The notes: generated by a model not told the origin, from the sequence alone. A stretch of 64,000 nucleotides of DNA from an uncultured delta proteobacterium (GCA_963798485.1 CAWCTR010000014.1:443722-507721), one strand, 5' to 3'; shown: positions 1 to 51,530, numbered from the stretch's first letter. Made by a program: numbers and translations.

Positions 1-597
1 AAGCCAGTTCCCGAGACGGGCCTCTTTGAGGATATCCGCCTTGAGTTCATCCTTGACGGCCGATTGCACACTCCCCTTGATCTGTCCCGCTACCTGCCTG
101 GATATTTCATCGATGTACTTATCACGATCCGATGCAGGGAGCTGTGCGGCAGGGTTCCGCTTTGATGCCTCAAGGTATCGCTCCGCCTCCTCATCGCTGA
201 TGAGCCCGCGGTCTTTGAGGCCTTTGATCATGGTCTCGAAATCCAGTTGTGTGTCCTGCTGGGGCAAATCCGGGGTTACCGCGGTCTGCTGTAAGGTGGC
301 AGCCTGCTCTGCCGGGCCGGCCTGAGGCGCGGCCTCTGGGGTAATATTTTCAGCCGGGGCTGGCTCTGCGGCCTGTGGCGGGATTGAAGACGCTTCAGAC
401 TTCTCCGCCGGGGTCTGTTCAGTTGCATTATCCAGGACTGCCTGCTTATCCTCCGCAGTGGTCCCCTGCATCACAGGGGCTGCGGGGGCAGGCTCGTCTG
501 CATGAGCCTGCCCCACAACACAGACAAACGGGATAGAGATGAGAAGGGCGATTACATACGGATAAACTCTCTTCCTGTGAATCAGTAGGTGTATCAT
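1..597 (-). CDS. Exported protein, probable putative outer-membrane porin of the TPS/TonB cluster (runs off window)
   Basis: Not in the ORF track because it is open at the edge. Manual translation from ATG 597 (AAAGGA RBS): MIHLLIHRKRVYPYVIALLISIPFVCVVGQAHA-DEPA..., a signal peptide, a Pro/Ala/Glu-rich linker, then MIKGLKDRGLISDEEAERYL. Porin call rests on this helix and its position after TonB; the barrel is outside the window. Confidence 0.6.
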   Translation of the reverse strand, partial: MIHLLIHRKRVYPYVIALLISIPFVCVVGQAHADEPAPAAPVMQGTTAEDKQAVLDNATEQTPAEKSEASSIPPQAAEPAPAENITPEAAPQAGPAEQAATLQQTAVTPDLPQQDTQLDFETMIKGLKDRGLISDEEAERYLEASKRNPAAQLPASDRDKYIDEISRQVAGQIKGSVQSAVKDELKADILKEARLGNWL

Positions 598-716
598 CTA
601 ATGTCCTTTCATTTTTTTGTTAACATTCTCTGTGGAGCAAATTGTATGAACCCGCGATCGTCATTACTAAACAAGCAGCGGTCTCTGATCTCAATGGTCA
701 TAGCCTACTCAATATC

Positions 717-757
717 ACCCCTCTACCCTGACCCTCTCCCGCAAGGGGAGAGGGGAC
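717..757. repeat. REP-like palindromic element
   Basis: CCCTCTCCC-GCAAG-GGGAGAGGG perfect hairpin with a preceding CCCCTCTACCCTGA tail, between tonB and the porin gene. Confidence 0.6.
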
Positions 758-789
758 TTATTATGAAACGGCTTTCCCTTGAACCATCC

Positions 790-1476
790 TTACGCCCTTG
801 AGGAGATCTCTACCCTCAGGACCTTTGGCATGCCTTCAGGAGGCGGCTCGTTGAACCTCTTGATGAGACTCAGGGCGCGGGAAACGGCACTGTCCATCTG
901 CTCCGATCCGGAAGATTTGTAGATCCGGTACTTCACGAGGTTTCCGTTGTCATCGAGCTGAAGCACCACAATGGTTTCGAGGTTGCCCGAGGGTATGTTA
1001 CCCCTGGCGAAGACCTTGTGGATCTCATCCTGGATGCCCCTGTTGTACCAGGCATACTTCTGCATGAGGCTCTGGGGTCCTCCTCCATTTGGGTCGCTCC
1101 CCACCAGGGCCCTTCCACCTTTCCTGCCCACAAGCCCGAATGCGTCGCCCCCAGCGCCTCCCTCGGCATCGAGGCCCAGCTGATCGCCCGGCGGCGGCTC
1201 GTTCTTATCGGATTTGCTGTTCGGGACATCCTGCTGCTGGACCATCTGGTTCTCATGGGGCTTCTCCTGTTTGACCTCCTGCTCGGGCGGCTTCTCCAGC
1301 TTGGTCGGCGGGGGCGGTTTCAAAAGGGTGACCATGTGAATCGCCTTATGCCTCACCTTGTCCTCGGTCAGAACCATCTTCACCATGGTCGCGCCAAGCC
1401 CCACCAGTACGAGGATCACGATACCCGAGATCACCTTGACCCCGGTGGACAGCTTGTCTTCAGCATGCCTTACCAT
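790..1476 (-). CDS. tonB: TonB-family energy transducer
   Basis: N-terminal TM helix, KPPPPTKLEKPP proline segment, TonB/TolA C-terminal domain (KSSGSEQMDSAV...EPPP); follows exbD. Confidence 0.85.
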   Translation of the reverse strand: MVRHAEDKLSTGVKVISGIVILVLVGLGATMVKMVLTEDKVRHKAIHMVTLLKPPPPTKLEKPPEQEVKQEKPHENQMVQQQDVPNSKSDKNEPPPGDQLGLDAEGGAGGDAFGLVGRKGGRALVGSDPNGGGPQSLMQKYAWYNRGIQDEIHKVFARGNIPSGNLETIVVLQLDDNGNLVKYRIYKSSGSEQMDSAVSRALSLIKRFNEPPPEGMPKVLRVEISSRA

Positions 1477-1510
1477 GCACCCCTCCCCTACCCGTCGTCA
1501 GGCAGCAAGG

Positions 1511-1918
1511 TCATTTCACCACCTTCTGCGTTACAAGCCCCAGCTGCGTGATATCCAGCCGTTGTAAGAGATCGAGCACGTCGATGACCTGCTGGTAGGC
1601 GACCTGTGAATCGCCCTTGACGATGACCGGCAGATCCGGGTTGGTGGCCTTGTACTGGACGAGCGTGTTCTCGAGGTCCTTCAGGGTTACCGGGTAGGCA
1701 TCGAGGTAGATGGTCCCGTCAGCGGCAATAGTGATGGCCCTGGTGCTCGGCTTGTTCAGCGTCGGGGCCGTGCTCGCCTTGGGCAGGTTCACCTGGATGC
1801 CCTGTACCGCCGCTGTGATGCATACGATGAAAACGACCAGGAGGTTCCACGCCAGATCAAGCATGGGCGTAATGTTGATTTCATCGTACGCCTTCTGATC
1901 GAACATGCCCCGTTTCAT
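1511..1918 (-). CDS. exbD: ExbD/TolR biopolymer transport protein
   Basis: EINITPMLD motif, single TM, VIVKGDSQVAYQQVIDVLD. Confidence 0.93.
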   Translation of the reverse strand: MKRGMFDQKAYDEINITPMLDLAWNLLVVFIVCITAAVQGIQVNLPKASTAPTLNKPSTRAITIAADGTIYLDAYPVTLKDLENTLVQYKATNPDLPVIVKGDSQVAYQQVIDVLDLLQRLDITQLGLVTQKVVK

Positions 1919-3744
1919 CAGGCAATCCTCCTCTCTTCGAGAGTGTCATACCGTTGGGCATCCTCGGTGTAGTTGGCTTCCACATTGATGGTGAACTCAT
2001 CCACAAAGAGGTAGACATCCGCCATGATATCCTTGATCTTGGTGGTCAGGTAGTTGTATGCGAACAGCGCCGGTATGGCCAGGATCAGGCCCGTCAGGGT
2101 GCAAGCGAGCGCCGACGCGATGCCCGGCGCAATGGCCATAATGTTGGCTTCTCCCACCTGGGCCATGGCCGCAAAGGTGTTCATGACGCCCCAGACCGTA
2201 CCCAGCAGCCCCAGGAACGGCCCGCCGGTAATCCCGATGGTCAGGAGAATAAGACCGCTGTTCAGCTTCTGGCCCTCCCGCAGCGCACCTTTTTCCAGCT
2301 CGTTCCTGAAGATGCTTGTTACCTTCGGCGTTATAATATGTTTTCCGTTGATGCTCCTCATGCGGTTGTTAAGGACGTGACAGCCCTGCTTGAAGATGCG
2401 GTAAACGGGCGAACGCGGATATTCGCCGCAGGTTTTCTCGAAGCCGTAGTAATCGTCCCGCTCCTCGATCAGAGGCATGAATTCATCGTTCGCCTTGGTG
2501 ATGTTCCGGATGGTGTTCAACTTGTCGATAAAGAGCACGATGCAGAAGCCCAGGATAATGAGGGTGATGGCAATGATTGACCACCCGGAGATTGTGGTGT
2601 TTTTGAACACGATCACCAGATAGCCGAACACTTCGAGCATGCCGCCGCCTTTTGGGGCCTCGGCGGCCCCGTAGGAGAGCAGGGTCGGCTTGGGAGACTG
2701 GCTCGAATACTGTGCCTGGACCCAGGGCTTGGAACGTGCGGTATTGGAGATGGTGAGCTCGTCCAGGTCGCCTGCAAAGCCGTGACCGCCTTTGCCATCG
2801 TTGCCGATGACGATCTCGCCTGCGAGATTGGGCAGTGTGGGAGACAGGTCTATACCGTATATGTCCTTGCCGTCGATGTAGAGCGTAAGCTTGCCCTGGT
2901 GCTGGGCGCTCATCACCACATGGTGCCACTGGCCGAGCGTGATCTCGCTGTTGGCCACCGGGGTCATGAGGGTGTCTTCCCTGCCCGACTTGAGACGGCA
3001 GTAGAGCCTGGTCTTGTCTATGCCGATGGTGATCGCCTTGTCCCCTTCTTCCCGGTAGAGGAGATATGCGTCAGCCTGCGCCGTGTTGGCCCTGATCCAG
3101 GAGGAATAGGTAAACCCGCCGGAGATGTCCAGCGACGGGTTCGACTGGATGACGAGCTTGTCCGCTCCGCCTCCAAGCGTGACCCCTTTGCCCACTATGG
3201 CAGGCAGCCCCAATGACCCTGAAAACGCGGAGGCATTGTTGCCGTAGCCCGTGGAGTCCTTGGGCATGCCTTCGGTTTCGGCAAAGTGGAACACCGCCAC
3301 ATAGTTCTTGTCATAGGTGCCCTTCGTGTCATCGGCCCTGGGCGCCTTCTTGTTGTCGTAATACATCCAGATGAAGTCGGCCTTGGATGCGGCTGCAACC
3401 TTTGGGACGCGCACCCAGATAAGCGCCATCTCGTCGGTGATGTCCAAGAGCTCGATGTGGTGCTTGAGCATTGCCTTGTCATCCGATGATACGAACCGTA
3501 TGTCCGAGCCGTCTTCCTTGATGCGCGTGAAGTCGATATTCCCCGTATGGAGCCTGACCAGGACCGGTATTTCGTCCGCCCCTGCATGGATGTCCGCCCC
3601 GGAAGTTGTGGTGTCGATGGTGATCTTCTCCCTGCCCGACCACTCTTCATTCCACCATGCGCGCGCCTCGCCGGACCATAGGCAGATCAGCGAGCATGCC
3701 AGGAGAACCCCCAGCAACCGATTTCTTATCACATGTGAGTCCAT
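1918..3744 (-). CDS. exbB: ExbB/TolQ proton channel with N-terminal DUF2341 and LamG-like domains
   Basis: Start moved to ATG 3744 (GGAGGG RBS). Signal peptide, WWNEEWSGR..DGSDIRF (DUF2341), GQWHHVV..LYIDG (LamG), GPFLGLLGTVWGVM..IAPGIASAL (MotA/ExbB). Confidence 0.92.
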   Translation of the reverse strand: MDSHVIRNRLLGVLLACSLICLWSGEARAWWNEEWSGREKITIDTTTSGADIHAGADEIPVLVRLHTGNIDFTRIKEDGSDIRFVSSDDKAMLKHHIELLDITDEMALIWVRVPKVAAASKADFIWMYYDNKKAPRADDTKGTYDKNYVAVFHFAETEGMPKDSTGYGNNASAFSGSLGLPAIVGKGVTLGGGADKLVIQSNPSLDISGGFTYSSWIRANTAQADAYLLYREEGDKAITIGIDKTRLYCRLKSGREDTLMTPVANSEITLGQWHHVVMSAQHQGKLTLYIDGKDIYGIDLSPTLPNLAGEIVIGNDGKGGHGFAGDLDELTISNTARSKPWVQAQYSSQSPKPTLLSYGAAEAPKGGGMLEVFGYLVIVFKNTTISGWSIIAITLIILGFCIVLFIDKLNTIRNITKANDEFMPLIEERDDYYGFEKTCGEYPRSPVYRIFKQGCHVLNNRMRSINGKHIITPKVTSIFRNELEKGALREGQKLNSGLILLTIGITGGPFLGLLGTVWGVMNTFAAMAQVGEANIMAIAPGIASALACTLTGLILAIPALFAYNYLTTKIKDIMADVYLFVDEFTINVEANYTEDAQRYDTLEERRIA

Positions 3745-3760
3745 TAACCCTCCGCCTTTC

Positions 3761-6700
3761 TTACTTGTCCTTATCCTGATTCTTGGCCTTTTTCTTCGCC
3801 TGGTCATCATTACCCTGTCCGCTGTTATCCTGCCCTTGTTCATCATCGCCGAACCCGATAACCATGACCTTCACCCACTTAGGCACATAGCTTTCTTCTG
3901 CAGCAGCGCTGCTCTTGGCTGCTGACGAAGATATGCCCGACATCTCTTCAGAGAGCTGCGATGACTCGTTCAGGCTGCTTGTCCCTGACAGTGCGGTGAG
4001 GGACCCGGCGTTCGTGTTCGTCAGAGGCACCCCTACGGAGACGCCCGACACCTGGATGTTCTGGGTGTTGCGGACTTGCTGTGCGCCGATGTACAGGTTC
4101 TCTGCCGCAATGCCCGCTTCACCCGCGTCAATGATGCCCGCAGGTGCGAAAATATAGGCGTCGCCGGGCTCCGGGGACGGAGTCTGATCGTTGATCGAGT
4201 AGGTGACCGTGCGGATCCCGCTTCCGGTTGCAGCCGGCAGGTACTCTTGAGTCAGCTGTCCTGAATCTTCATCCCACGTCCAATCAGAGCCACCCCTTCC
4301 GACCGCGGTCTTGGAGCCCCTGCCGGCATTGATGTCACCCTTGTCGCTCCATATCAGGATGTCACCTCCGTAGAGAGTCATGACCCTTGACTGCAGGACA
4401 TCCACGTCCTTGCTCGAAAAGATATCGATATTGCCTCCCTTCCAGGTTTTTATGCCGGTACTTTCGTCAGAGGTCAGGTCGCTGCGGCCCACGTCCATGG
4501 TGCCTGTCGAGAGGATACTGATGTTCGAGTTGGTGCCCTTCGCCGTGATCTGCGAGCTGATCATCCGGATATCACCCTTAGCCAGGGTGGTATCAGTCCC
4601 CTGGGTAGCCGTAGATCCGGTGTCCACCGTGCCGATAAAGGGCTCTATGATGTTCTTATCCGTTTCGGCGACGATATCGAGCGCTCCTTTGGGATCGTCC
4701 TTGAGCTTGGTGCTGTAATCAATGCCTGCCTGCTTGATCTGGCTGAAGAACTGGTCGACGCCTGCCGGGTCCAGTGGGTGCGTCGCCGGATCGAGACCAG
4801 AGGCCACGATGAGATTGCACCCCTGGTTTCCGAGTTGAGAGGAATAGAGTTCAAAATAGTTTCCCTCTGATACAATGCCTTGCGTGGCCCCAAGGTCAAT
4901 GGAGTTTCCGGCCTGGACGATTAACGTGCCCGGCCCGCCGTACAAGAACCCGGTCCCATAACCGCTCGCGTCCACCGTGCTCATGACGATATCGTGTCCT
5001 GCGCTTATGACGGAGACATCGTTCTTATGGAGGTTCTGGCCCTGTATGTAGGTGTCGCGGATATCATTGCCCGCCTCTATCTGAGCCATCTTGGGCAGGT
5101 AGAGCCTCAGGTCGTGGATATCATTGCCTGCATCGATGGTGATCGAGGTATGATCGGCCTCGTGGATCAGGTCTCTGCTTGCGGATCTGGAGATGTCTCC
5201 TGCGATGACCTGGGCTTTTGTATTCTCGGTACTGATTGTTGTATATCTGGGCTTTCCCGTTCCTTCATCAATACTTGTCTCTATGGATAAACTGATAGGC
5301 ATTGCAGTGCCGTATACCTGCTGGGGGTCGAAGTCTGACATCTCTATCTTAGCCTCGCAATACGTCAAACCTGTACCTGATCCTACAGTGTACGCGCCGC
5401 TGATGTCACGGCCTGCAGCCATACTGAGGTTCCCTGTCAGGGAGGGCGCCAGATATAAATCCTGCAGGATATCGATATCCCGCCCGGCCTCGACCTCCAG
5501 GGTCGGCGGAAGCATTTCCTGGGCATTGGTCGTTGACGTCGAATCGCCATTGTAATAGGGCCCTGCTTTCCCGGTTATTGTGACATCACCCTGAATGGAT
5601 GTGATGCGCACCTTGGCGTCTTCGGTGTAACTGAATACATCATTGAGGCCTCCGGAAGTCGGCAGCCTGGGGTCGGCAAGGTTCGGGTTCACGATAGACC
5701 CCAGCATGATGTCGCCCTGGGCGGTAAGACGCACGTCCGTATCGAAGGCCTCCACGGCCATGTTCTGATTGTTCGTGCTTGCCATTTTCTGCTGGTCCGT
5801 GCCGATGTTGCCCATGGCGTTCAGCTCGCATACCCCGTCCTTGACCAGAAAACGGCCGTTGATGTCATTGTCTGATACGATCTTCAGATCGCTCTCGCCG
5901 TTCAGGCCGAAGGTCCCTGCCTGGGCAAAGAAGTCACCACCGGTTCGGATAGAAAGGTCCCCTCCTCCCATGGTGGCAATACCCCTAGTACTTTGAAGCA
6001 AGCCGTTCGTGTCTGCATAACTTGCCACCCAGGTGGGAGTGGTCATATTGCCGTCCGCATCAACAATAATATTTCCCTGGTCATCAACCTCGTAGGCTGA
6101 AAGACCCGTGTCCCATGCATTCGGGTTGATGCCGCCCTTTACATCACCTCCGACCTTCAGGTTGATGCCGCCGCCGTTGCCGAACCTCCAGTAAGATGAA
6201 TACGCATAATGCGGGGATGGCTCCATATATCCTGTCGTACGTATTGCCCCGTCCGTTCCCATGACCACATCCCCATTCACCGTAAGATCGATTGCCCCGG
6301 CTGCGCTCTGGATGGCCCCGCCCTTCTGAATCTGGGTGCTTCCCGTCAGTAACAGGTCCCTTCCCACCTCGCCTTTGATATCGCCGTCAAAGGTTGCGAG
6401 GTTGTACTTCATCGAGCCATTGATCATATATGAAGCAGTAGTTCCTGCGTAAGCCTGCATGATCGTGTCGCGGCCCGATGCGAAACGAAGCGGTGCGTTC
6501 TCGGTATAGACAAGCTTTGAGCCGATGTTGAGGTCGCCTGTATCGGGCGCGGATATGACGGCCATGGTATCGGCGCTGGCAAGGTCGGCACCGGCCGCCA
6601 GGGTAATACCCCACGAATCCATTTTAGTGTCTGCGGTAAGAGAGGTGAACACCGTGGGGTGGTCTGTAATATTCTGGTTGATATTCAGGTTTCCCCCTGC

Positions 6701-9700
6701 CCTCAGGGTCAGCATGCCGGGCTCGCCCCCAAAACGCCAATTCCATGTTACGGTTTTATTGCCGATCTTGGTCTTATTGCTTTGGCTGAGATCCCAGGTG
6801 CTGCTCAGGGTTATGTCACCCTGGCTCTGGATTTCGATACCGGGCACGAGATGGAACGAATCCGGATCTGATCCGCTCAGATCCAGAGAGGAAACGAGCC
6901 GTTCCTTGACGCCGGAAGCGGCGGCACTGTTCATGAACTTATTGGTATCCTGGTAGTACTTGCCGGAGTAGCCGATGTCATTTGCATTGATCACGACATT
7001 GACAGCGCCGGTATCAGGGTCAGTGACATAGTCATTGTCCGTGTCCTTATAGACCTTGACGGCCTCTGCAACCACACGCGAGGCGCCTTTAACCGTGCCT
7101 GCGAGGTCCATGCTGACATCTGTGCCGCCGGGGTTGGATGTATCGATACCGGTGCGGTCCGCCCTGAGGTATACCTGGCCGCCGGTACCTGCAGCTGTTG
7201 TTACGTTGCCGTTATTGTCCGTCAGCTGCGGGGACCCGCTCACATCGATGAGGGAGCCTTTCTCCATGGTCAGATCATTTTGAAGATCCTGGTTCGAGGA
7301 GTTGCCTGTCGTTGCGAGCCTTACTTCACCGCCCGCCCTGCCGGTACCTGTACCCTGGGCATTGGCATAGATCGCTCCCGTCGGTGCAAGGTCGATCTTG
7401 CCCGCATTGATCTCCACGCTGCCGCCCTGGGCACCCGCGGCGTCGATGTTCCCGGCTATGGTCAGAATACCCGTATCCGCGGTCAACTCCACGGACTTGG
7501 CGCTCAGCGTATCGCCCGCATTGACCTTCAAGTTCTCTGTGCGATCTCTGATGGAAATCGACTCGGTGAAACCCTTGAGGCCTTTGGACAGGGCACCGAG
7601 ATCCACATCACCGCCTCCTCCGTTGATGCTGTTTGCATCAAGCCCAAACGTGCCTGCCAGCCCGGCGTCTCCGGCTATTCCATTGAGCGTTGTTGCCAAA
7701 GCCGCATTACCGTTCGGCGTACTAATCACAACACTGCCTGCATCCCCATGGTAAACGCCCTGGCCATCCTTATATGCCGAGACATCAATCAGGGAGCCGG
7801 CCTGGCCTGTAAATCCTCCTCCACCTGAGGCCAGCGCCACCGCGCCTCCAGGGGTATAGACCTGCGTGCCGTTCACCGCGGCCTGCACTGTGCCCTGGGC
7901 CAGGATCTGCGAACCGTTCTCTAGTGTAATGCCGTCAGCGGCGTCTGAACCCGTCGCCGTGAGCTTGACCGTGGCTGACGGTGCCTCGATGATGCCTGCA
8001 TCGTCTATCGACCTGGCCGTGATCTCCAGCGTGCCTCCCGGGGTCAGGGCCCTGTTGGCCGCAAGCGTGTAATCCTTCTGGCCGTTGATGGCAAGCGGCC
8101 TGGCGCCGGCATCGATGCTGAACTGAGGGGCTTCATACGGCCCCTGGTCGGTCGTATCCGTGGGCGGGTCTCTGTAGAATGAGGTCGTGATGCGTCCTGC
8201 AGTGATATTCATAACTGCGTCCGGCGCCTGGTTGTTCAAGCTGTCCACACTCAGTGATCCTTTGCCCATGGTTGTAAGGTCATTGGCGCACTGGATGCCG
8301 ACAGAGCCGAAGCCGTTCATGATCATATCACCGTGGCCTATGCTCATCTGGTCCGCAGAGACGGTCAGAAGGGCGGTATCCGTATTGCCTGCGTCGCTGT
8401 TGGGATCTGGATTGTCGGGGTCCGCGATGCTGGTATTCTTCAGGGTGATCGTCTTTGAACCCATCTTCACCAAGCTGGAATCGCCAGCCGCATGATCGTG
8501 CACGATCCTCGGCGCATCGATATCAAGTTCCGTGCCAGTTTCAAGGTCTACAGCCCCCTCGAAGACCACGTCTTGCGTGCCCTTGAGGCTGAGGCTTGAG
8601 ACACCCTGGAAGCCGGTCAGCTTGTCGCTCAGGTAAAGCCCGCCTGTCTGTGCCGACTGGAAGCCGTCAGGGGTGACGAATATCCTTTGGGATGTGAGGT
8701 TGAGCGCACCGTTATCCACCTTACAGGTGCCTTGGAGGTCAAGGCTGCCGGCCTGGATGTTTATGGTATCTGTGGCATGGACGGAAGCCCCTTGGCTGAT
8801 GGTGATATTTCCATTGTAGGTGTTGAGGCTTGCCGCGCCTCCCGTGCCAGTCGCCTCGATGCCGGAGCCCGACGCGAGGGTGATGGAATCGGCTGCATTC
8901 AGGCTCACCTTGTTGGCGGTGAGTACCGCACCGTTCTGCAGGTCTACCGTCTTGGTCTTCGTTATGTCGCCAACGGTGATCTCCCCGATCCCCGAGGAGT
9001 TGAGTCCTTCCGCAGAGACAGTGCATTTTCCGTCATAATCGGGTGCTGCCGAAGATACCGTTGAGTCATAGGTGAAATCCTCAGGGAGGAGTACCGGTGA
9101 TTTCACCACTTCGTTATCCTCGGAAGCTAGGGTCAGAGAGCCGCTCTTGTAGCCGGTTCCCGCCAACGCCTGTGACGCTATGGAACCGCTGATGACGGTG
9201 GTGGGCCCGCTTATAGAGATGCTGCCTGCATCGCCTCCGACAAGCTCCATTGCCTGGTATCCGCCCTGGTTGACGGTGCCGTAGCCGCCCTGTTTGAGCA
9301 CATCGGATGCGGGCCTGATGCTGTATGTATGTGCCAGAGGCGACAAGACGGATGTCCCCTGAATCGTCTGATATCCTTGCGTGAGTGGATAGCCTTCCGT
9401 GGATGAGGTGAAGGAACCCGGCGTTGTAATGACACCGAGGTCGGATATGACGTAAGCTCCCGGCAGGAAGGCGTATTCTTCATGGTCTTTCGAAGATACC
9501 AGGGTGTATGTGCCGGATGGAAGCCCGGCTGCGCCGTTCAGCTTGACCGCATTTCCGGGCAAGGTCAACCCGGGTACGATAATATACTGGGCGCTCTGCT
9601 GGAGTGGGTCGGTGGAGCCCATGATGCCCGGCTGAAATACATAGGAGAATATCGAGCCCCCTCCCGACGTATCGATAGTAGCCCCCTGCTTGACAATGAC

Positions 9701-14176: not shown

Positions 14177-14189
14177 GGCTCATTCCCTC

Positions 14190-15917
14190 CTAGAACTGCC
14201 CTTTGACCAGGAAATGCAGTATCCGGTTGTTCTTGTCTGTCTGGTCCGTCTTCCTCAAGGCAAAGGCATAATCGGTCTCAAACTGGAAATATCTGGTCAG
14301 GCTCCCCCGCAGGCCTAGGCCGGTCCCGTAGATGCCCGCGCTTCTGTCCTGCTGGGGCAGCGGATCGATGGTGGTGAGCAGGGCAGCATCGCAAAAGAGG
14401 TACGGCGTCAGGTATGTAGTGCCCTGATCCGATCCTGAGGAAATATATGAAGTCAGCTTCGAGTATCCGGGTATCTTCAGCATCTTCATCAGATCCGGGG
14501 CTCGCAGCTCTATGGTGCCGTGCAGGGCGTTGTCGCCTGCCTCCTCACTTTCCTTGTATCCCCGGACACTCTCCATGCCGCCTGCCGTATACTGCTCATT
14601 GCTGATGAGCGGCTGGCCGCTCATCTGGCCGTCGACCTTGAGGAACAGGCTCGCATCTTTCGGCAGAGCCAGGTCGCGTTCCACGCCGAGCTTCGTGATG
14701 AAGTAATCGGCCCGCGCCATGTAGCGCTTGTCTTCGAACTGGCCCTCGCGGGTGCTGAACCCCCTGAAGCAGGTGCTCATGCCGGCCTGGAACCTGGTTG
14801 CCCCTAATGAATCGGGCAGGTTCGAATTGTACTGGACGTTAAACGGCAGATAAGTGACCGGCGTCTTGATACCGCTCGGAGAGTCCTTCGTGCCCTGGGT
14901 CTCTCTCATGTGCTTGTAGTCAACGCCAAATGATATGCTGTGCGAGTAGATCTTGTAGAAAGGGAGCGGCACTGCATACTGGAGCCCGTAGATGTCGCCT
15001 TTGCCGTTCACCTGGAAGCCTTCTCCGAATGCGGTCTGGCTGTCGGAGATCACCCCGTATACAGCCAGTATGTTGTCTTCGTTCCAGGGTGCCGGCAGCA
15101 CATAGGAGGCGGCAAAGGCCTTCACCTCGTCTGTTTCCTGTGGTGACATCTGGTACTGGAGGCTGATGCTGTGGCTGCTCTGCCAGAGATTGTCATAGTG
15201 AATGACGCCGTTCAATCTCAGGTCGCTCGTGTCGTGCGTGGAACGGTTGTTCAGCTCGATGCTGCCGTGCAGGGGAAAATAGTCCGTGGCACGCAACTCG
15301 ACGTCCGTTGTCCCGAGCTCCTTGCCGGGCATGAGGATGGGTTCTATCTTGAGGTCGGAGGCGCTGTTCGCCTTGTTCATTTCCTTCTGGACTTCAGGCA
15401 CATAAAGGAGCTCGCCCCTCCTGAACGCCGGGAGCATTTCCAGGATCTTTTCCTTGGTATGGTAACGGTTCCCGGTAACCCTGACATCTCCGATCTTGCT
15501 CTCGATGACCTCCAATGTCACTACACCCTCCTGCACATCCTGTGGGGGTATGTTCACAAGGACCGTGGGATACCCATCGTTGTGGTAGAGTTTTTCAAGG
15601 TATTTCCTCGCCTCCTCGACATCTTTAGAGGTCTTGTTCTGTCCTGTGTAGAAGTTGAGGCCTTCGATAATCCTGTCATAGTCCAGCAGCGTGTTGCCCT
15701 TTACGATATAACCCTTGATCTCAAAGGCCGTCTCTTCCTCCTGTGCCGTATACCCGTCCCGGAACATGACAAGCAGAGTGAATACCACCACCACCAGGAT
15801 CCACATGGTCTCCATGAACAACCCTGATTCTTCATCCTGTCTCTTATTGCCGTTACCAGCTGGATCCATGTCGGCATAACCATACCTCTGATGCTTCTGA
15901 GATTTTATCTCCTTCAT
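14190..15917 (-). CDS. TpsB (ShlB/FhaC/HecB) outer-membrane transporter
   Basis: POTRA region (FEIKGYIVKGNTLL, IPPQDVQEGVVTLEV), SVRGY motif, C-terminal Phe; start could be a later ATG. Confidence 0.92.
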   Translation of the reverse strand: MKEIKSQKHQRYGYADMDPAGNGNKRQDEESGLFMETMWILVVVVFTLLVMFRDGYTAQEEETAFEIKGYIVKGNTLLDYDRIIEGLNFYTGQNKTSKDVEEARKYLEKLYHNDGYPTVLVNIPPQDVQEGVVTLEVIESKIGDVRVTGNRYHTKEKILEMLPAFRRGELLYVPEVQKEMNKANSASDLKIEPILMPGKELGTTDVELRATDYFPLHGSIELNNRSTHDTSDLRLNGVIHYDNLWQSSHSISLQYQMSPQETDEVKAFAASYVLPAPWNEDNILAVYGVISDSQTAFGEGFQVNGKGDIYGLQYAVPLPFYKIYSHSISFGVDYKHMRETQGTKDSPSGIKTPVTYLPFNVQYNSNLPDSLGATRFQAGMSTCFRGFSTREGQFEDKRYMARADYFITKLGVERDLALPKDASLFLKVDGQMSGQPLISNEQYTAGGMESVRGYKESEEAGDNALHGTIELRAPDLMKMLKIPGYSKLTSYISSGSDQGTTYLTPYLFCDAALLTTIDPLPQQDRSAGIYGTGLGLRGSLTRYFQFETDYAFALRKTDQTDKNNRILHFLVKGQF

Positions 15918-15973
15918 CTATTTCCCGGCTTCCCCTCTTTTCTGTGTGAGCGTCTCTTGTGCATCGATTCCGT

Positions 15974-17185
15974 TCACTGCCCCGACGTGCAACCCTGCTG
16001 TTCCTGGGGCAATGTCAAAGAGGCTTTCGAGGTTTCTCTCTTTCCTGTCATGCCGTGTGCGATGCAGTGTATCTCGCTGGCGAGTTTTGCGGCGTTGCTG
16101 AACCCGCTGAGCTTTTTCACTACCGTCCCGTCAGGACTTATGAGCACCGTCAAAGGAAACCCCTCCTGCTGGTACATTGTCTTGTATTCTTTGTTCAGGT
16201 CCGAATCGATCTTCACCCACACGAAGTTTTCGGCAATGGCCTTGATCCTCGGGTCTACCAGGGTTTCATCAAAGTATTTTTTGCTCCACTGGCACCATGA
16301 TGCATAGAGCACGAGCAGGACAGATTTGTGCTCTTCTTTGCCCCGGGAAAGGCCGGCCTTGTAGTCATCGCCCCAGGCTATCTTCATGGCTTCCATGGCT
16401 GCCTTGGGTACAAAGGAAACAGCTTCAACCGTAAGGTTGATGTTCTTCCCGGCCAGGGGATTGTTCAGGTCCACAGTGAATTTCTTGCCGTCACTCGAGG
16501 TGATGACCCCCTTTTTCCCATCTGCATCGAAATCGGCGCCGATCTGCGGGGTGAGTGTGACATAGATCATATCGCCTTTCACCCTGACGACAGTCTTCCC
16601 GAAGGGGCTTTGCGCTGTAAAGCCGTCTTTTGGCTGGTTCACGAGCACTGCCTCCTTCTCGGTCACCTTCTTCACCTTTGCCGGAAAGTACGGGTTTGCA
16701 TTTACCTTGGCCCCTGCAACCGGGAGCTTGTTGAACCGGAATACATATTCACCCGGTTTCATGGTGAAGGCCTTCTTCATGGTCTTTATGCAGTCGAACT
16801 GTTTGAAAAGATTCTTGTCTATTGACCCGTACGCATTCTGTGCCGGCACTGTTACGGTCCGTCTTTCACCGACGCGCATCCCTGGGAGTATATCCTTGAG
16901 TCCGGGTACCGGGCCGTCTTCCCCGGCTATCATATCGGAAGGTATGGCACAGTCGGGCTCATCGTATCCCCTAGCCCTGACCGTATCTGCCCCTGAGGCG
17001 GTAAGAGGTTCTGTCGTGTAGATTGTCTCACCGCTCTCGGTCCTTGCGGTTATATTGATAGTGACGAGGTCACCCTTTTGTATCTCAGTGCCCGTTGCCG
17101 ATGCAGGCAGCCATCCGATGATGGACGGCAAAACCCAGATCATGGTTGTTGTTATTATGATAGGAAAAAGGCGTCCTGTTTTCAT
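15974..17185 (-). CDS. Exported SlyD-like FKBP peptidyl-prolyl isomerase fused to a thioredoxin-like domain
   Basis: GMRVGERRTVTVPAQNAYG and VDLNNPLAGKNINL (FKBP); C-terminal LYASWCQWS (CxxS) and GFPLTVLISPDG (Trx fold). Confidence 0.85.
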   Translation of the reverse strand: MKTGRLFPIIITTTMIWVLPSIIGWLPASATGTEIQKGDLVTINITARTESGETIYTTEPLTASGADTVRARGYDEPDCAIPSDMIAGEDGPVPGLKDILPGMRVGERRTVTVPAQNAYGSIDKNLFKQFDCIKTMKKAFTMKPGEYVFRFNKLPVAGAKVNANPYFPAKVKKVTEKEAVLVNQPKDGFTAQSPFGKTVVRVKGDMIYVTLTPQIGADFDADGKKGVITSSDGKKFTVDLNNPLAGKNINLTVEAVSFVPKAAMEAMKIAWGDDYKAGLSRGKEEHKSVLLVLYASWCQWSKKYFDETLVDPRIKAIAENFVWVKIDSDLNKEYKTMYQQEGFPLTVLISPDGTVVKKLSGFSNAAKLASEIHCIAHGMTGKRETSKASLTLPQEQQGCTSGQ

Positions 17186-18045
17186 GGTTGCTTGTCCTTC
17201 TGGGTTTTATCGCCGGCACCTGTGCCCCGGGGCAGTATGGAGTCGATTTGCACATCGCACATGAGCTCTTCACCGCCGAAGGGATTCCCGTAGTCGATAG
17301 TGAATGTCTTTTCTGTCACTTTTATGATCCGGCCCACCTGGGACGCGGATCGTACAAGGTGACCCTCCTGTGCATTGGTCACGATGTCATAATGGTCGGG
17401 GTAATCTCTGATCACCCCCCTGCCGAACGGCTGGTCAACGATACGGCCGTCTTCCACATCGATATGGATGAGAGCCTCCTTGTCCTTTATATCTTTTACG
17501 GTACCCACAAAACCCTGATAGGAAAATGCCTGATCGCCTATGGCTGGGACATATCCGATCTTTTCTTTCAGGGCCTTCAGGGCCACCTTCTGTTCCTTTT
17601 CCCTTCGTACCACCCGGCCGAGGGTTGTATAGCGGTCCCCCTCCTTCAGATCGGAGGGGACATCGGACCTGAGTACGATGGTGTTGTTTTCACCCACCTT
17701 CATGCCCACAATCGCCCGGGCCACTTGGGCCGCAACTTCCCACTCGAACATCTTGAGTTTGCCGAACCTCGGGTAGTTGTCCGGACCGCCCGCCACCAGA
17801 TCTTCAGGGCCATATTTCTTGAAGGGAAGGAAGATGGCCGCTTGAGAAGCCTTGTCCCCGGCGATCTCTTCACGGGTGGTGAGCACAACTTCGCCGTTCA
17901 TCAGGCGGCAGGTGTAGTTCACCATGGCAGTGTCTCCCTGCTTTACCCGGACAGGGCCGAATGATGAACAACCGCTGAGTGTCGATGCAATGATGATGGT
18001 TATCAGTGCGAAAGAAATAACATGTTCCTGTTTGTGCATCATCAA
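17182..18045 (-). CDS. SlyD-like FKBP peptidyl-prolyl isomerase, lipoprotein
   Basis: Lipobox LSGC; VKQGDTAMVNYTCRL, GMKVGE, IDYGNPFGGEEL. Confidence 0.82.
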   Translation of the reverse strand: MMMHKQEHVISFALITIIIASTLSGCSSFGPVRVKQGDTAMVNYTCRLMNGEVVLTTREEIAGDKASQAAIFLPFKKYGPEDLVAGGPDNYPRFGKLKMFEWEVAAQVARAIVGMKVGENNTIVLRSDVPSDLKEGDRYTTLGRVVRREKEQKVALKALKEKIGYVPAIGDQAFSYQGFVGTVKDIKDKEALIHIDVEDGRIVDQPFGRGVIRDYPDHYDIVTNAQEGHLVRSASQVGRIIKVTEKTFTIDYGNPFGGEELMCDVQIDSILPRGTGAGDKTQKDKQP

Positions 18046-18086
18046 ACTTTCTTCCTTTTTTCATTCCGTATAATTTGTGCACTTTA

Positions 18087-18115
18087 GGGGAAGGGCCCGC
18101 GAGGAGCCCTCCCCC
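18087..18115 (-). terminator. GC-rich hairpin after the PstS-like gene (partial terminator or mRNA stabiliser)
   Basis: GGGGGAGGGC-loop-GCCCUUCCCC on the minus strand; no long U tract. Confidence 0.45.
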
Positions 18116-18146
18116 ACTGTATGTAACCTTGTTCTTTAAGCGGCGA

Positions 18147-19376
18147 CTACTGGCGGACCGGGTATGTTAAATCGGTGGTCTTCGTCACGCTCATCTCGCT
18201 GCTGGTTGCCCACCAGGTGTTCTCGGAGGCAGGCAGGTTGGCTGGATTGGCTGCGAAGTTGACCAGGTCATTGACCAGACCGTTCATTGTTGTACCCAGG
18301 TTGTTCGGCCAGTACAGCTCCTGTGCTGACCAGAAGTCATACTGTCCCTCTTTGATATGGGTCCTGTCGCCGGTGACACCCATATAGGGCAGCCGCGTGG
18401 CGCCGGTAAGGACCTGATCGGAGTCGGCATAACCAATAGCGCCTGACACTGTGGAGACGCAGGTCATCATCTGGCCGGTGCCGTCATTGAAATATGTCAC
18501 AGGGGACAATCCGGCAAGATAGAGCGGGTCGGTGGGAAGGACCTCGGTGGTCACCAGGGAGTAATCGCCCCTCATGACGGCCGCATCAAGTGTGGCAACC
18601 GTGCCCGAGCCTGCATGCCTCATGCACACGACGATCGGCGTCGATGCCGTAGTGGTGTCCAGCTGGTTCCAGTTGGTAACCTGTCCGGAGAAAATCTGAG
18701 TGGCCATGAGCCTGCTCATGTTGGTAATGTTGGCCAATTTGGTGTCGCTGCTGTTCTTGAAGAAGGAAAAGGGAACGACCAGGGGTGATGCGTTGTAGTA
18801 CGTTGCCGGCATGCTCAGGCCCGAGACGATACGATCGACCTGGGAACCGCCTGCAGGGCCGTTGGCCAGCCCGTGGCTCTCCTGGTTGAATGTCTCTGCC
18901 TTCACATCGGAAGCAGCTACGTTGATGGGCACGCACAGGTTGGCGGTTACGGTGTGCGCAGACCAGCTGGCGGTTGCCTGATTTGCCATCTGGCGCTGGG
19001 CGTTGTTTGTACAACCTGCAGTTGCGAAATCGTTCAGACCCTGAACGGCATCGACGCCGTCATAGGATGCCTTGGAAGAATAACGCAAAACGAGCGTGTC
19101 ATGGGTGCCGCTGATGCCGCTGCCCGATACACCGCCGAAGGCCGTGTTGCCGGCGCATACCGCGATGCCGTGCTTGTTGTCGGAAGAATGGGCCGTGTAG
19201 ATATCGCCCGATGCGCAGCCCTTGGAGGCGAGGAACGCGGCGTCGGATGCGGTCCAGAAATTGTATTCTGCCGAGGCGCCGTACATGTTGATTTCGTAGC
19301 TTGCAGCATTTGCCATGCCGCCGATCGCCAGCATTGACACACCAAGGATCGCTGATTTCATATATTTATTAAACAT
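18147..19376 (-). CDS. Exported PstS/DING-like substrate-binding protein
   Basis: Start ATG 19376 (AGGAGA RBS); signal peptide ANA-A; N-terminal YGAS, IFSGQVTNWNQL, CMRHAGSGT, GAIGY and GQYDFW, typical of the phosphate-binding PBP fold; six Cys. Confidence 0.75.
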   Translation of the reverse strand: MFNKYMKSAILGVSMLAIGGMANAASYEINMYGASAEYNFWTASDAAFLASKGCASGDIYTAHSSDNKHGIAVCAGNTAFGGVSGSGISGTHDTLVLRYSSKASYDGVDAVQGLNDFATAGCTNNAQRQMANQATASWSAHTVTANLCVPINVAASDVKAETFNQESHGLANGPAGGSQVDRIVSGLSMPATYYNASPLVVPFSFFKNSSDTKLANITNMSRLMATQIFSGQVTNWNQLDTTTASTPIVVCMRHAGSGTVATLDAAVMRGDYSLVTTEVLPTDPLYLAGLSPVTYFNDGTGQMMTCVSTVSGAIGYADSDQVLTGATRLPYMGVTGDRTHIKEGQYDFWSAQELYWPNNLGTTMNGLVNDLVNFAANPANLPASENTWWATSSEMSVTKTTDLTYPVRQ

Positions 19377-19424
19377 AGTGTATTCTCCTTTTTTTAGTAT
19401 ATTCATTCGGTTCAGTATGATTGG

Positions 19425-20198
19425 TTACGCGGCCGTCTCTGCGCCCTTCTTTTTCAGACCCACAAGACCAAGCAGCCCGGACCCGAAGAGCAGTATGCTC
19501 GCCGGGATCGGTGTGGCGGCAGTCGATTCGGCGACCGTGCTGCCGTTTGCATTGAGGGTGAGTATACCGCTGTAGGGGGTGCCGTTTGCGCCGGGAGCTG
19601 CGGAGACCAGGTTGAAGTGGTAGAGGTACATAGTTACGGAACCACCATTATCGAGAGCAGCAAGGCTGGCTTCGCCGAGTGCACTGGCTGCCGTATTAAG
19701 TCCTCCATAGTAGCCTGGGGCGGTTCCATTCGAATCCATCTTCTTTACATATGAATTCACATTGCTTGGACTGGCATCCACGATCTGATTTGTGGTGCCG
19801 CCAAGTTGGGTGGCGTAGTATGTGTTGACAGTAGAGCCGTAGGCAGTACTAAAGTTAGTCCTTGCGTTAGGATTGATTACCGGGGTTGTAGTCGCCGTGG
19901 TTGCGAAGTACTCCTGGTAGGTTGAACCGCTGTAGGCAAAGAACCCGACTTTCAGATTCGACCAGCTGGATGCCTGGAGTGCGCTGAGGTTGATGCTGTC
20001 CGCACCGGCAAGGGTCAACGAGCTTGCGATGGTGTCAAGGTTCAGGGTGGCGAGATTGCCGAGATCGATGGCGCGTTCAGCCGTTGTTCCGTTGTACACG
20101 ACCTCAATGAGATCGTTGTTCGAAAAATAGGCAAAAGCCTGTGAAGAAAGTGCTGTCATGAGCACAACTGCTAGTATGGTTATGAAACTGGATTTCAT
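19425..20198 (-). CDS. PEP-CTERM-type (VPLPA/TPIPA) surface protein
   Basis: Signal peptide AFA-Y; Ser/Thr/Asn-rich body; C-terminal TPIPASILLFGSGLLGLVGLKKK. Confidence 0.88.
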   Translation of the reverse strand: MKSSFITILAVVLMTALSSQAFAYFSNNDLIEVVYNGTTAERAIDLGNLATLNLDTIASSLTLAGADSINLSALQASSWSNLKVGFFAYSGSTYQEYFATTATTTPVINPNARTNFSTAYGSTVNTYYATQLGGTTNQIVDASPSNVNSYVKKMDSNGTAPGYYGGLNTAASALGEASLAALDNGGSVTMYLYHFNLVSAAPGANGTPYSGILTLNANGSTVAESTAATPIPASILLFGSGLLGLVGLKKKGAETAA

Positions 20199-20370
20199 GT
20201 TTTTTACCTCCTCTGTTTTTTAGTGATGCCTGGTGTTTCTTTAAGTATGTTGCCGCCGAGGGATTCTTTATTTTATTTTGACTTGCCTCTCCTTGCCCTG
20301 ATCACCCCCTTTCTTTCGGCTTCCGGCCGTACGCACTGTGTGTGCGGACAGAGTTAGGCCGTTCGTTTAA

Positions 20371-20515
20371 GAGGGCTTCCTGTTCCTTACTGTACGTATA
20401 TTAAGGAATGATGGCGCTCGGTAAATTCAGAGCCGAAGAACTTCGATTCATTCCCCTTAGCTCATTCCTCATTGTGATTCTAAAAACTGATCAACGTAAG
20501 TCAGCAAAGTACCCT
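20371..20515 (-). ncRNA. Candidate structured 5' leader motif, copy 1
   Basis: AGGGUACUUUGCUG (20515-20502) and CAGGAAGCCCUC (20382-20371) can pair with each other; both blocks recur identically at 40349-40419. Confidence 0.55.
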
Positions 20516-20553
20516 GTATGTATTTAATTGTGAGACGGGTTGTACCACGGGTA

Positions 20554-20592
20554 TGTGAACGGAGTATGAATGAACAATGAATTTTTTGTTAA
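20554..20592 (-). promoter_or_regulatory. Pho-box-like array upstream of the PEP-CTERM/TPS/TonB operon
   Basis: TTAACA-TTCATT-TTCATA-TTCACA at 11-bp period, then GTGG-TACAAC. Confidence 0.75.
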
Positions 20593-21665: not shown

Positions 21666-21704
21666 TATCAATATCCTATGAACAAGCTGTTAATTTTAGG
21701 TTAA
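21666..21704 (-). promoter_or_regulatory. Pho-box-like array upstream of gspC
   Basis: TTAACC-TTAACA-TTCATA-TTGATA at 11-bp period, then GTGG-TACGAA. Confidence 0.72.
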
Positions 21705-40263: not shown

Positions 40264-40348
40264 AGCTTCCTCCTCACAAGAGTTTTTACCATTCCTCATG
40301 CTACGGGATAGGTTTCATCCGTGTTGCACACTGAGCCTTATGTCTTGT

Positions 40349-40419
40349 GAGGGCTTCCTGGTTCTGTTAAATGCCGTTTTTTCTGGGAAGGTTCCCTTTG
40401 AAAGCCAGCAAAGTACCCT
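40349..40419 (-). ncRNA. Candidate structured 5' leader motif, copy 2
   Basis: Same AGGGUACUUUGCUG and CAGGAAGCCCUC blocks as 20371-20515, with a shorter, different interior. Confidence 0.55.
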
Positions 40420-51364: not shown

Positions 51365-51411
51365 AGTGTCATTCCCTTCTTGGTGTTACGGGGGAGATTG
51401 AACCAGACAAT

Positions 51412-51461: not shown

Positions 51462-51530
51462 TTCTTAATGATAGTCGCTTGATAATAGTATTTACAAGAA
51501 GCAAGAGACCTTGATGTTTTTTGCAAATTC

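Follow-up and report, generated by a model that had tools for sequence, protein, structure and literature searches.

The window analysed in this study, a stretch of 64,000 nucleotides (nt), comes from the genome of an uncultured delta proteobacterium (GCA_963798485.1 CAWCTR010000014.1:443722-507721; contig C14:443722-507721 of an assembly of 4.3 Mb in 32 contigs), and its DNA is present in freshwater-sediment metagenome runs and in no other runs. Positions 1-20198 are filled by ten open reading frames (ORFs), all on the minus strand, which encode a PEP-CTERM-type secreted protein, a PstS-fold binding protein, two FKBP-type proteins, the TpsB exporter and the giant TpsA fibre protein of a two-partner secretion (TPS) pair, an ExbB2-type stator subunit, an ExbD/TolR protein, a TonB/TolA-like protein, and a porin. 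ORF calling and domain matches to Pfam and NCBIfam models thus confirm the ten co-oriented genes reported in a preliminary description of this DNA. The intergenic gaps range from -4 to 101 nt, with the exception of 192 nt ahead of the porin gene. Terminator-like sites number 22 overall (16.5 +/- 3.6 in shuffled sequences), and the four on the coding strand are every one intragenic. Because the gaps are short and these coding-strand sites all lie within genes, the ORFs appear to form a single transcription unit. The system is very probably a Desulfobacterota form of the Pdt/ExbB2-type envelope cluster of Pseudomonas aeruginosa, organised as one long minus-strand operon, and the closest named relative of its ExbB fusion is found in a Desulfomonilia metagenome-assembled genome (MAG; 85% identity).

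The operon runs past the window edge. To the left of base 1, the same strand carries the rest of the porin gene, a gene for a 134-amino-acid (aa) protein whose N-terminal signal ends in ISC and which is read as a lipoprotein, a gene for a membrane-anchored coiled-coil protein of 229 aa and, separated by a gap, the gene for a HAD-like protein. An exosortase gene (506-aa ORF, PF09721, E 1e-58) is located 17 kb past the operon end within an exopolysaccharide (EPS) locus that also includes PrsT-like TPR, Wzz/GNVR and AAA_31 genes. The absence of a TonB-dependent receptor, noted originally for the ten genes, extends to this region: domain scans found none in or near the locus, including downstream, and the genome's two PF00593 matches are located on contig C4 and on C14 at a distance of 245 kb.

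The TpsB exporter (14190..15917) consists of a POTRA_2 domain and a ShlB barrel. Its presumed substrate, the 3471-aa TpsA protein (3761..14176), carries a TPS domain at residues 62-294 (E 5e-27) and a DUF3739 domain at residues 3270-3384 (E 2e-32). Near its C-terminus, residues 3433-3443 (KWVKVMVIGFG, encoded at 3848..3880) form a predicted strand that is followed by an acidic and basic tail. The same arrangement of a Ser/Ala-rich linker, a strand located outside DUF3739, and a charged tail is found when this end is compared with 36 TpsA ends from the related loci described below. Almost every one of these 36 real C-termini displays the strand motif [KS][WF][LI]xV[KE]V[IL][GD]F[GV][DE]. The regular expression used for the strand alignment, which is stricter than needed, kept 29 of 37 rows; of the eight that were dropped, five do show the motif, and the others are a duplicate locus, an ORF in the wrong frame and a weak case. 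We take this terminal strand to resemble the TonB boxes of plugged receptors.

The ExbB2-type stator subunit (1918..3846) probably starts at 3744, which yields a protein of 608 aa. It joins a periplasmic head of about 400 residues, composed of DUF2341 and Laminin_G_3 (LamG), to a MotA/TolQ/ExbB channel whose best NCBIfam model is TolQ (E 4.9e-34 vs 4.4e-22 for ExbB). This PF10102, PF13385 and PF01618 architecture occurs in at least 1011 protein clusters. The adjacent ExbD/TolR gene (1511..1918) was assigned by its domain match, and its product is 57-69% identical across the surveyed loci. The TonB/TolA-like protein (790..1476) has a C-terminal TonB_2 domain and a weak match to TolA.

Only the N-terminal 199 aa of the porin are encoded within the window (1..597), including a signal peptide, a low-complexity linker and a helical stalk, and the barrel lies to the left of the window. 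The full protein (L009:17544-19319) is 591 aa long, matches Porin_5 with an E value of 6e-126, and extends 1.2 kb beyond the window edge. A structural model built from a 31-row alignment has a mean predicted local distance difference test (pLDDT) value of 72, with most barrel blocks at 85-97, and comprises the signal peptide, a disordered linker (residues 26-115), helices at residues 117-195 that form an 80-residue stalk, and 16 long strands without a plug. The best fold match is OmpM1 of Veillonella (template modelling (TM) score over the target of 0.71-0.73), followed by general porins and AlgE, and DcaP ranks 36th. In a comparison of 47 family members, of which the related loci supplied 46 and the window one, the linker is variable and a L..L...G.i..E.A motif is conserved together with the helices that follow it. 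A plugged 22-strand receptor with a TonB box was not found in or near the locus, where the modelled barrel is 16-stranded and plug-less.

The second gene of the operon (18147..19406) encodes a 419-aa protein with a signal peptide, a PBP_like_2 domain, six cysteines, and about 150 aa of insertions. There are 202 relatives at E values up to 0.001, which are mostly from Desulfobacterota according to their source names, and five cysteines are nearly invariant in the family. A model based on a 37-row alignment (pLDDT 91.8) matches PstS1 structures best over its whole length (4exl, 4lat and 4ecf; TM over target 0.79-0.83), whereas DING/HPBP structures rank 20-35 or lower with values of 0.40-0.52 (0.49-0.52 for DING structures such as 2q9t and 4f1v). 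The DING-like label initially attached to this protein was rejected because the PstS1 structures fit better. Residues conserved in the 37 sequences include GASA (43-46), S114, S166-D167 and R263-H-A-G-S-G-T269, and the SD and RHAGSGT blocks align to the same blocks of PstS1. Presumably, these conserved residues correspond to the eight phosphate ligands of Escherichia coli PstS. With the TIGR02136 model the protein scores 52.7 bits against a cut-off of 206.6 bits, and is thus not scored as a PstS family member.

Two FKBP genes follow, as originally described, although one of these supposed twins is an FKBP-thioredoxin fusion. The first (17182..18045) encodes a 287-aa lipoprotein-type protein whose N-terminal signal ends in LSGC, which is read as a lipobox, and whose FKBP_C match of 18.2 bits lies below the 21.1-bit cut-off; tblastn identifies it as a paralogue of the adjacent gene. 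That gene (15974..17185) encodes a 403-aa fusion of FKBP_C and Thioredoxin_7. In the thioredoxin-like domain (window 16300-16315), the sequence WCQWS, a CxxS motif, replaces CxxC. The fusion architecture is also found at L058:9704-11002. An FKBP pair recurs in L058, where the second member has the thioredoxin domain, and in the genome G288, and a single FKBP is present in L037. L037 and L058 carry some of the closest ExbB fusions outside near-identical relatives.

The first gene of the operon (19425..20198) codes for a 257-aa secreted protein with a signal peptide and a PEP-CTERM-type end, TPIPASILLFGSGLLGLVGLKKK. The NCBIfam VPLPA-CTERM model matches weakly, and the Pfam PEP-CTERM model gave no match to this protein. 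Among its Atlas language-model neighbours, 27 of 30 matches belong to PEP-CTERM clusters. It has the features of a PEP-CTERM/exosortase substrate, namely the signal peptide, a C-terminal P-x-P motif with a hydrophobic helix and a basic cluster, and an exosortase in the same genome. Homologues with 32-38% identity adjoin a PstS-like gene in four other genomes (G084, G420, G288 and G209).

Upstream of this gene, a direct-repeat array of four units (TTAAC, TTCAT, TTCAT and TTCAC) occupies positions 20555..20592 on the minus strand. The units start at 20592, 20581, 20570 and 20559, which corresponds to an exact period of 11 nt and confirms the four-unit Pho-box-like array of the preliminary description. 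A search of both strands of the 4.3-Mb genome for TT[CA]A[TC]-N6 repeated three times found 17 arrays, of which 13 fall within the window, two are some 30 kb left of it and a further two are on contig C7, whereas about 0.5 are expected by chance from arithmetic that assumes uniform base composition. Both genomic occurrences of the strict pattern TTCAY-N6-TTCAY-N6-TTCAY are within the window. Other arrays are positioned at 21704 ahead of gspC, at 27152 between pstS and pstC, at 39052 ahead of a ppk1-CHAD-phosphoesterase-ppx operon, at 40483 and 40991 ahead of a PEP-CTERM gene, and at 51439 and 51531 between divergent genes for a GT4 glycosyltransferase and a metallophosphoesterase. The pstS gene is preceded by a five-unit array.

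The window carries a phosphate island comprising phoB-like, phoR-like, PhoU_div, Pit, pstSCAB-phoU, CYTH, EEP phosphatase, ppx and ppk1 genes. The phoB-like response regulator gene and the phoR/pnpS-like kinase gene (21944..24333, plus strand) are divergent from the operon and 1.3 kb from it, and PhoB is the best NCBIfam model for the regulator (251 bits). Arrays are not confined to this genome. A degenerate three-unit array occurs eight times in 982 kb of related loci, compared with 0.25 in shuffled sequences; one such array in L037 is directly ahead of the FKBP-TpsB-ExbB genes, and a four-unit array in G209 lies about 1 kb ahead of the PEP-CTERM gene. The array is a genuine regulon motif, and we accept it as the likely site bound by the local PhoB-type regulator because the arrays concentrate in the phosphate island (phoB-phoR, Pit, pstSCAB-phoU, ppx and ppk1) and precede pstS. 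Control of the operon by this regulator under phosphate scarcity is therefore predicted and likely.

A conserved 5' leader element, GGGTACTTTGCTG ... ACAGGAAGCC, is located between the array and the PEP-CTERM gene (20374..20514, minus strand), where an insert of 118 nt separates its two blocks. The consensus, which was spotted upstream of PEP-CTERM homologues, consists of GGGTNCTTTGCTG, a variable hairpin, and (A/C)CAG(G/A)AAGCCC. Three copies are present in the genome, starting at window positions 20514 and 40418 and at C7:393099. The first unit of a Pho-box array lies 64-78 nt before the start of each copy, and each copy is ahead of a different PEP-CTERM gene; the second copy (window 40351-40418, minus strand) precedes a gene for a 255-aa protein at 39532-40299, and the third (C7:393028-393099, minus strand) precedes a gene for a 237-aa protein. 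When expressed as an IUPAC pattern and searched against 401 genomes of the phylum, the element is found at 11 places in seven genomes, and the reversed pattern is found nowhere. Six of these seven genomes also carry a PstS-like gene. The operon's own copy escapes the pattern because its insert is too long, and including it gives 12 instances. An ORF of 229-288 aa with a PEP-CTERM end follows nine of the 12, and the three without one are a tandem copy in G084 and single copies in G395 and G420.

The element appears to be linked to two kinds of output. In the G209 copies and in the G084a, G288 and G420 copies, the 3' block is included in a terminator-like hairpin with a run of U nucleotides, as judged by folding for one G209 copy (G209a) and by sequence reading for the others. 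The G209 fold is a strong terminator (z -4.55, with none of 200 shuffles as good). In the other two copies of the genome studied here, the 3' block directly adjoins 10 nt of sequence complementary to the Shine-Dalgarno region. The fold z value is -1.53 for the window copy at 40418 and 0.06 for the operon's own copy, which is no better than shuffles. In the alignment, 95.8% of closing-helix cells are paired and nine of 11 pairs are invariant. The covariation score of this helix is 0.102 compared with 0.074 for shuffles, a value reached by 34 of 500 shuffles. However, covariation is uninformative here because the helix is nearly invariant and its bases were mostly fixed by the search pattern. 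Curated covariance models yielded no relevant Rfam match for the 5' region or the leader at E values up to 10. By analogy, two output devices behind one conserved block look like riboswitches or protein-bound attenuators. A sigma-54 promoter was considered as an alternative identity for the element and rejected, since the GG-to-GC spacing is 6 nt in all copies and not 10. A second conserved block, (A)GAAAGG(G/A)GGTGAT, is near-perfectly complementary to 16S rRNA. It is found at window 20295-20310 and downstream of the leader in L145, L147, L143 and L148, lying 50-110 nt beyond the leader, a long way ahead of the real start codons.

A set of 83 loci was surveyed by tblastn with the window proteins. 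Of these, 80 were kept from a metagenome scan that detected at least 531 relatives, and three came from genomes; the near-identical L020, L036 and L082 were dropped from counts. Among loci with at least 5 kb of downstream flank, ExbD is present in 37 of 37, TonB in 31 of 37 and a downstream Porin_5 gene in 28 of 37. Porin_5 is found anywhere in 27 of the 29 loci whose flanks measure at least 5 kb on the downstream side and 2.5 kb on the upstream side, and a TpsA C-terminus or TpsB is found in 38 of the 45 loci with at least 2.5 kb upstream. The co-occurrence of these genes is strongly conserved. Neither an immediately downstream receptor nor a lack of conserved co-occurrence, both of which the preliminary description named as refuting its interpretation, was thus observed. 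Clustering of the ORFs and scanning of representatives also revealed a coiled-coil-like family of about 230 aa in 35 loci, SurA-like parvulin isomerases in 13, Wzz/GNVR genes in eight, TPR and Poly_export genes in seven each, AAA_31 genes in five, and GDP-mannose dehydratase genes and OmpR-type regulators in four each. The same core is found in Anaeromyxobacter (L021) and in a Chthoniobacterales MAG (L022), which carries a SurA-like parvulin too. In L037, an exosortase-EpsI fusion and glycosyltransferases are directly upstream of FKBP-TpsB-ExbB, with the Pho-box-like array in between.

The PstS-like gene is found in seven of the 401 sampled genomes of the phylum (E up to 1e-20). Its context was retrieved as about 27-40 kb around the match in G084, G326, G420 and G288 and as the whole 7.2-kb contig in G209, and the match in G171 is at a contig end. 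In all four genomes with extended context, the gene is beside FKBP(s), TpsB, TpsA, the ExbB fusion, ExbD and TonB. Porin_5 is also beside the module in all three genomes whose stretch reaches far enough, the G288 stretch ending at the TonB gene. G084 is collinear with the window (PEP-CTERM twice, PstS-like, FKBP, TpsB, TpsA, ExbB fusion, ExbD, TonB and Porin_5) and has phoU-phoB-phoR 5-11 kb upstream. The same genes occur in other orders in G326, G420 and G288, and the short G209 contig carries the PEP-CTERM and PstS-like genes. In G013, from the same genus, the search for the PstS-like gene gave no match and the PEP-CTERM query matched the sorting tail only, which is no evidence of absence because this genome is 76% complete and in 410 contigs. 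From these sequence comparisons, the PEP-CTERM, PstS-fold and FKBP genes qualify as conserved parts of the Desulfobacterota variant.

The gene set recalls a cluster of P. aeruginosa PAO1, and the resemblance to Pdt/exbB2 pointed out in the preliminary description holds by gene content and order as given in passages of PMC4971064 and PMC2729926. According to the relevant part of PMC4971064, the PphdA promoter transcribes phdA, pdtB, exbB2D2, tonB4 and PA0696-PA0701, PpdtA transcribes pdtA, and at least the vreA promoter is active only in low phosphate in a PhoB-dependent manner. Like pdtA (PA0690) and phdA-pdtB-exbB2-exbD2-tonB4-PA0696-PA0701, the window operon has a giant TpsA and a TpsB followed by ExbB, ExbD and a TonB homologue, and it shares two signal-peptide proteins (here Porin_5 and the 229-aa coiled coil), a prolyl isomerase, and the lack of a cognate TonB-dependent receptor. 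The PAO1 operon responds to low phosphate with PhoB-mediated induction (PMC4971064), and this has a predicted counterpart here in the Pho-box-type array and the phosphate island. However, the PAO1 cluster belongs to the PUMA3/sigma-VreI regulon as well as that of PhoB, whereas PhoB-type boxes sit directly on the window operon, and vreAIR-type extracytoplasmic function (ECF) sigma and anti-sigma genes were not seen among the scanned neighbours (gspC, phoB, phoR, Pit and pst genes). The isomerase is of PpiC type in PAO1 (PA0699; PMC2729926, in part) and the window operon has FKBPs instead. Furthermore, the window lacks an adjacent Hxc-type secretion system, having only an orphan GspC paralogue, and adds the PEP-CTERM protein, the PstS-fold protein and the leader element.

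The core is thus already in print with its role unexplained, and the suggestion that the system is new as a whole was overstated; it is the Desulfobacterota variant that is new and conserved. In P. aeruginosa, the Pdt/ExbB2 cluster was recognised in 2009 as a locus of phosphate starvation with links to virulence, yet its private TonB-type motor still lacks an assigned role. In the sections of PMC2729926 that cover the cluster, PA0696 and PA0697 are signal-peptide proteins to which no function is assigned, single mutants of tpsA, tpsB, the tonB homologue and PA0696 retain wild-type virulence in zebrafish, and TPS, exbBD and PA0696 homologues are reported to travel together in other bacteria (Llamas 2009). 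A TPS review lists PdtA under unknown function and classes it with adhesin-like TpsA proteins (PMC5422565, relevant section). Among the papers listed, none published from 2017 onwards gives tonB4, PA0696 or exbB2 a role, and none connects DUF2341-ExbB, Porin_5 or DUF3739 with a function.

Other known systems share individual parts with this operon. In Haemophilus influenzae HxuCBA, a two-partner-secreted protein (HxuA, with HxuB as its TpsB) and Ton-dependent energy serve nutrient capture (PMC5422565, in part), but HxuC is a plugged TonB-dependent transporter and the window barrel is a stalked 16-strand porin. The channel domain, ExbD and C-terminal TonB_2 domain correspond to those of TolQ-TolR-TolA and ExbB-ExbD-TonB of E. 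coli, which differ in lacking a stator head of about 400 residues and in having classical clients (plugged receptors and Pal/TolB) that are absent from the locus. OmpM1 of Veillonella parvula (8byt) and DcaP of Acinetobacter baumannii (6eus) likewise combine a 16-strand barrel with an N-terminal helical periplasmic stalk, whereas the window porin has no detected SLH domain, belongs to the Porin_5 family, and is encoded alongside a motor and a TPS pair. The 419-aa protein shares the type II binding-protein fold and the SD and R..GSGT motifs with PstS (4exl and 4ecf) and DING (2q9t and 4f1v), and is distinguished by about 150 residues of insertions, six cysteines, and a gene located apart from pstCAB. 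Finally, the signal peptide, PEP-CTERM-type end, long 5' non-coding region and nearby exosortase agree with the PEP-CTERM/exosortase systems in the scheme outlined in part of Haft et al. 2006 (PMC1569441). That scheme involves PrsR, motif 1 and a sigma-54 -24/-12 promoter, whereas here there is a Pho-box-type array and a leader with a GG...GC spacing of 6 nt. Some PEP-CTERM genes thus appear to be tied to phosphate starvation instead of the PrsR/sigma-54 scheme, via a leader outside known RNA families. The only paper found to join PEP-CTERM, phosphate starvation and PhoB gives the PEP-CTERM genes another regulator in the portion concerned (PMC3333781).

The extra conserved genes, namely those for the PstS-fold binder, the PEP-CTERM surface protein and the foldases, point the system towards phosphate handling at the cell surface. 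Overall, the best explanation is that the locus is a phosphate-starvation operon for a fibre and its motor, with the fibre end as the client of the motor, and we regard the chances of this explanation as evenly balanced. It starts from what the sequence itself shows, namely a conserved set of genes, the regulon motif, a PstS fold, a stalked barrel without a plug, and a conserved strand at the end of the fibre protein. When phosphate is scarce, a PhoB-type regulator would drive the operon from the four-unit array, and the 5' leader would provide a second layer of control. TpsB would export the 3471-residue TpsA fibre, and the two FKBP chaperones, one with a thioredoxin domain, might keep TpsA and the cysteine-rich PstS-fold protein export-competent. 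A CxxS thioredoxin domain would suit such chaperoning because the PstS-fold client has six cysteines. The PstS-fold protein would bind phosphate or a like oxyanion outside the cytoplasm, the stalked 16-strand porin without a plug would be the matching outer-membrane channel, and the neighbouring exosortase would sort the PEP-CTERM protein to the surface. We infer the phosphate-limited induction, phosphate binding, exosortase sorting and FKBP chaperoning in this scheme.

The motor step is more tentative. The extreme C-terminus of TpsA would stay in the periplasm and present its TonB-box-like strand, and the TonB/TolA-like protein would grip this strand by strand addition, powered by the lectin-headed ExbB2-ExbD stator, such that the proton gradient holds, tensions or releases the fibre. 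We consider such a stator-powered grip on TpsA somewhat unlikely on balance. Still bolder is the complete picture in which the fibre itself is the non-receptor client of a TonB4-type motor, proton-motive force passed through TpsB tensions, retracts or releases on demand a surface filament of thousands of residues, Desulfobacteria scavenge phosphate with the PstS-fold binder and the porin, and a leader RNA not described before is a second checkpoint on Pho-regulon PEP-CTERM genes; taken together, these proposals are improbable. A TonB-box-like strand conserved at the fibre end across phyla provides a concrete and cheap biochemical hypothesis for what the motor grips, which renders the long-open question of the motor directly testable.

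The proposed contact was modelled using residues 95-228 of the TonB-like protein and the last 60 residues of TpsA, with alignments for both. The complex scored 0.45, compared with 0.00 for the best of three controls, with at least 77% contact agreement between runs and a partner pLDDT of at least 47, which was graded as weak support. For comparison, 58 of 80 solved complexes and two of 110 mismatched pairs reach the mark, and only seven of the 80 but both passing mismatches do so at 0.60 or under; these counts hold only roughly for our case because self-made alignments were used. The pass may show likeness only, because TonB/TonB-box complexes have already been solved. For the original suggestion that TonB may act on the porin or on TpsA, the analysis adds a conserved TonB-box-like strand and a weak pass in complex prediction on the TpsA side. 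More generally, the observations of the preliminary description are confirmed and its interpretation is partly supported.

Several points weigh against the favoured explanation. Passes of this class in the complex prediction are wrong more often than they are right unless the guess had been probable to begin with, and the strand addition to TonB may reflect the model's memory. The periplasmic retention of the TpsA C-terminus is argued by analogy, with the FhaB prodomain as what we take to be its counterpart. The ligand of the PstS-fold protein is predicted from its motifs only, and this protein has no pstCAB of its own, canonical pstSCAB being separate with pstS at 26244-27077. Regarding regulation, the 251 bits of the response regulator are below the 296-bit cut-off of the NCBIfam PhoB equivalog, and the last clear array unit is 45 nt from the presumed leader start, compared with 32 nt in two sister promoters. 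The full ExbB fusion is present in one of 40 relatives (same genus, family and class), and the operon is therefore accessory. The likeness to the PAO1 cluster is drawn from gene content and order in papers, and P. aeruginosa was not named among the control genomes with matches. In addition, the GspC, HAD-like and 134-aa lipoprotein genes are not conserved with the module.

The conserved N-terminal motif of the porin and its 80-residue helical stalk reaching into the periplasm suggest a different client. As in the preliminary description, either the TonB-like protein or ExbB, through its lectin head, might grip the stalk and its L..L...G.i..E.A motif, thereby opening or positioning the channel for energised uptake of a phosphate-bearing solute collected by the fibre and the PstS-fold protein. 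No neighbour is more constant than the porin (27 of 29 loci), a plugged receptor is missing, and OmpM1 and DcaP are precedents for stalked trimeric porins. However, the barrel is that of a 16-strand general porin, and because it has no plug to pull, energised gating would be without known precedent. The stalk is also modelled with moderate confidence (block means of 48-80, with residues 172-182 and 192-200 below 50), and the TpsA C-terminus has the more TonB-box-like sequence. We therefore judge the porin to be an unlikely client.

Two further explanations give the fibre or the motor another purpose. A phosphate-stressed cell might build a floc or biofilm fibre with the exosortase/EPS machinery, in which case the motor would assemble or anchor the fibre and the PstS-fold protein would act in sensing or as a structural partner. 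In favour of this, the operon begins with a PEP-CTERM gene, the exosortase/EPS locus (exosortase, PrsT-like TPR, Wzz/GNVR and AAA_31) adjoins the operon, an exosortase and glycosyltransferases are directly upstream in L037, Wzz/GNVR, Poly_export and TPR genes recur in eight, seven and seven of the 83 loci, and PdtA has been grouped with adhesin-like TpsA proteins (PMC5422565, section on TpsA classes). Yet EPS neighbours are seen in a minority of loci that are possibly interrelated, and the intact PstS phosphate-site motifs and the Pho context favour a phosphate-related role; a matrix or adhesion system is rather doubtful. Alternatively, the TolQ-like channel, the TonB_2 and weak TolA matches of the TonB-like protein, and the outer-membrane attachment porin that is the best fold match of Porin_5 might indicate a Tol-Pal-like envelope-integrity device. 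Such a motor would tether the outer membrane via an OmpM-like porin during phosphate-starvation lipid remodelling, which would fit the arrays ahead of the GT4/metallophosphoesterase pair in the same island, and the fibre would be a passenger of the regulon. This possibility leaves the tight TpsA/TpsB linkage (38 of 45 loci) unexplained, no Pal or TolB homologue is present in the locus, and no peptidoglycan-binding domain was detected on the porin, and we consider it very unlikely.

Beyond the array, a second, orphan GspC-like gene (T2SSC and PDZ domains; 20727..21581, minus strand) has its own three-unit array at 21678-21704. The other GspC of the genome is near a secretin at C14:64-70 kb, approximately 395 kb away, and when phosphate stress sets in the orphan could redirect the housekeeping type II secretion system. 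It was not found beside the module in the other genomes checked (G084, G326, G420 and G288). GspC, the HAD-like gene and the 134-aa lipoprotein gene were considered as parts of the module and rejected, since no homologue was found in the 83 surveyed loci or by the module in these four genomes; the 134-aa gene is confined to near-identical relatives.

Some additional features of the window and related loci were observed. At window 48938-53478, the divergent GT4 glycosyltransferase (808 aa) and metallophosphoesterase (600 aa) genes have intervening three-unit arrays on both strands, and we assume that they resemble the phosphate-sparing lipid-remodelling pair of other bacteria. In the same-genus relative L020, a ppx homologue is present shortly past the coiled-coil gene (L020:8305-8610), such that phosphate genes adjoin the cluster on the opposite side. 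In the metagenome locus L041, the TonB and porin genes are separated by an inserted Pho-box-like array and two additional genes (L041:12911-16730), one of the two encoding a kumamolisin-type propeptidase with an InlB B-repeat. The corresponding interval of the window contains a short repeat (709-770) that includes a 9-bp GC-rich hairpin (732-754) and is present in at least 14 copies on nine contigs.

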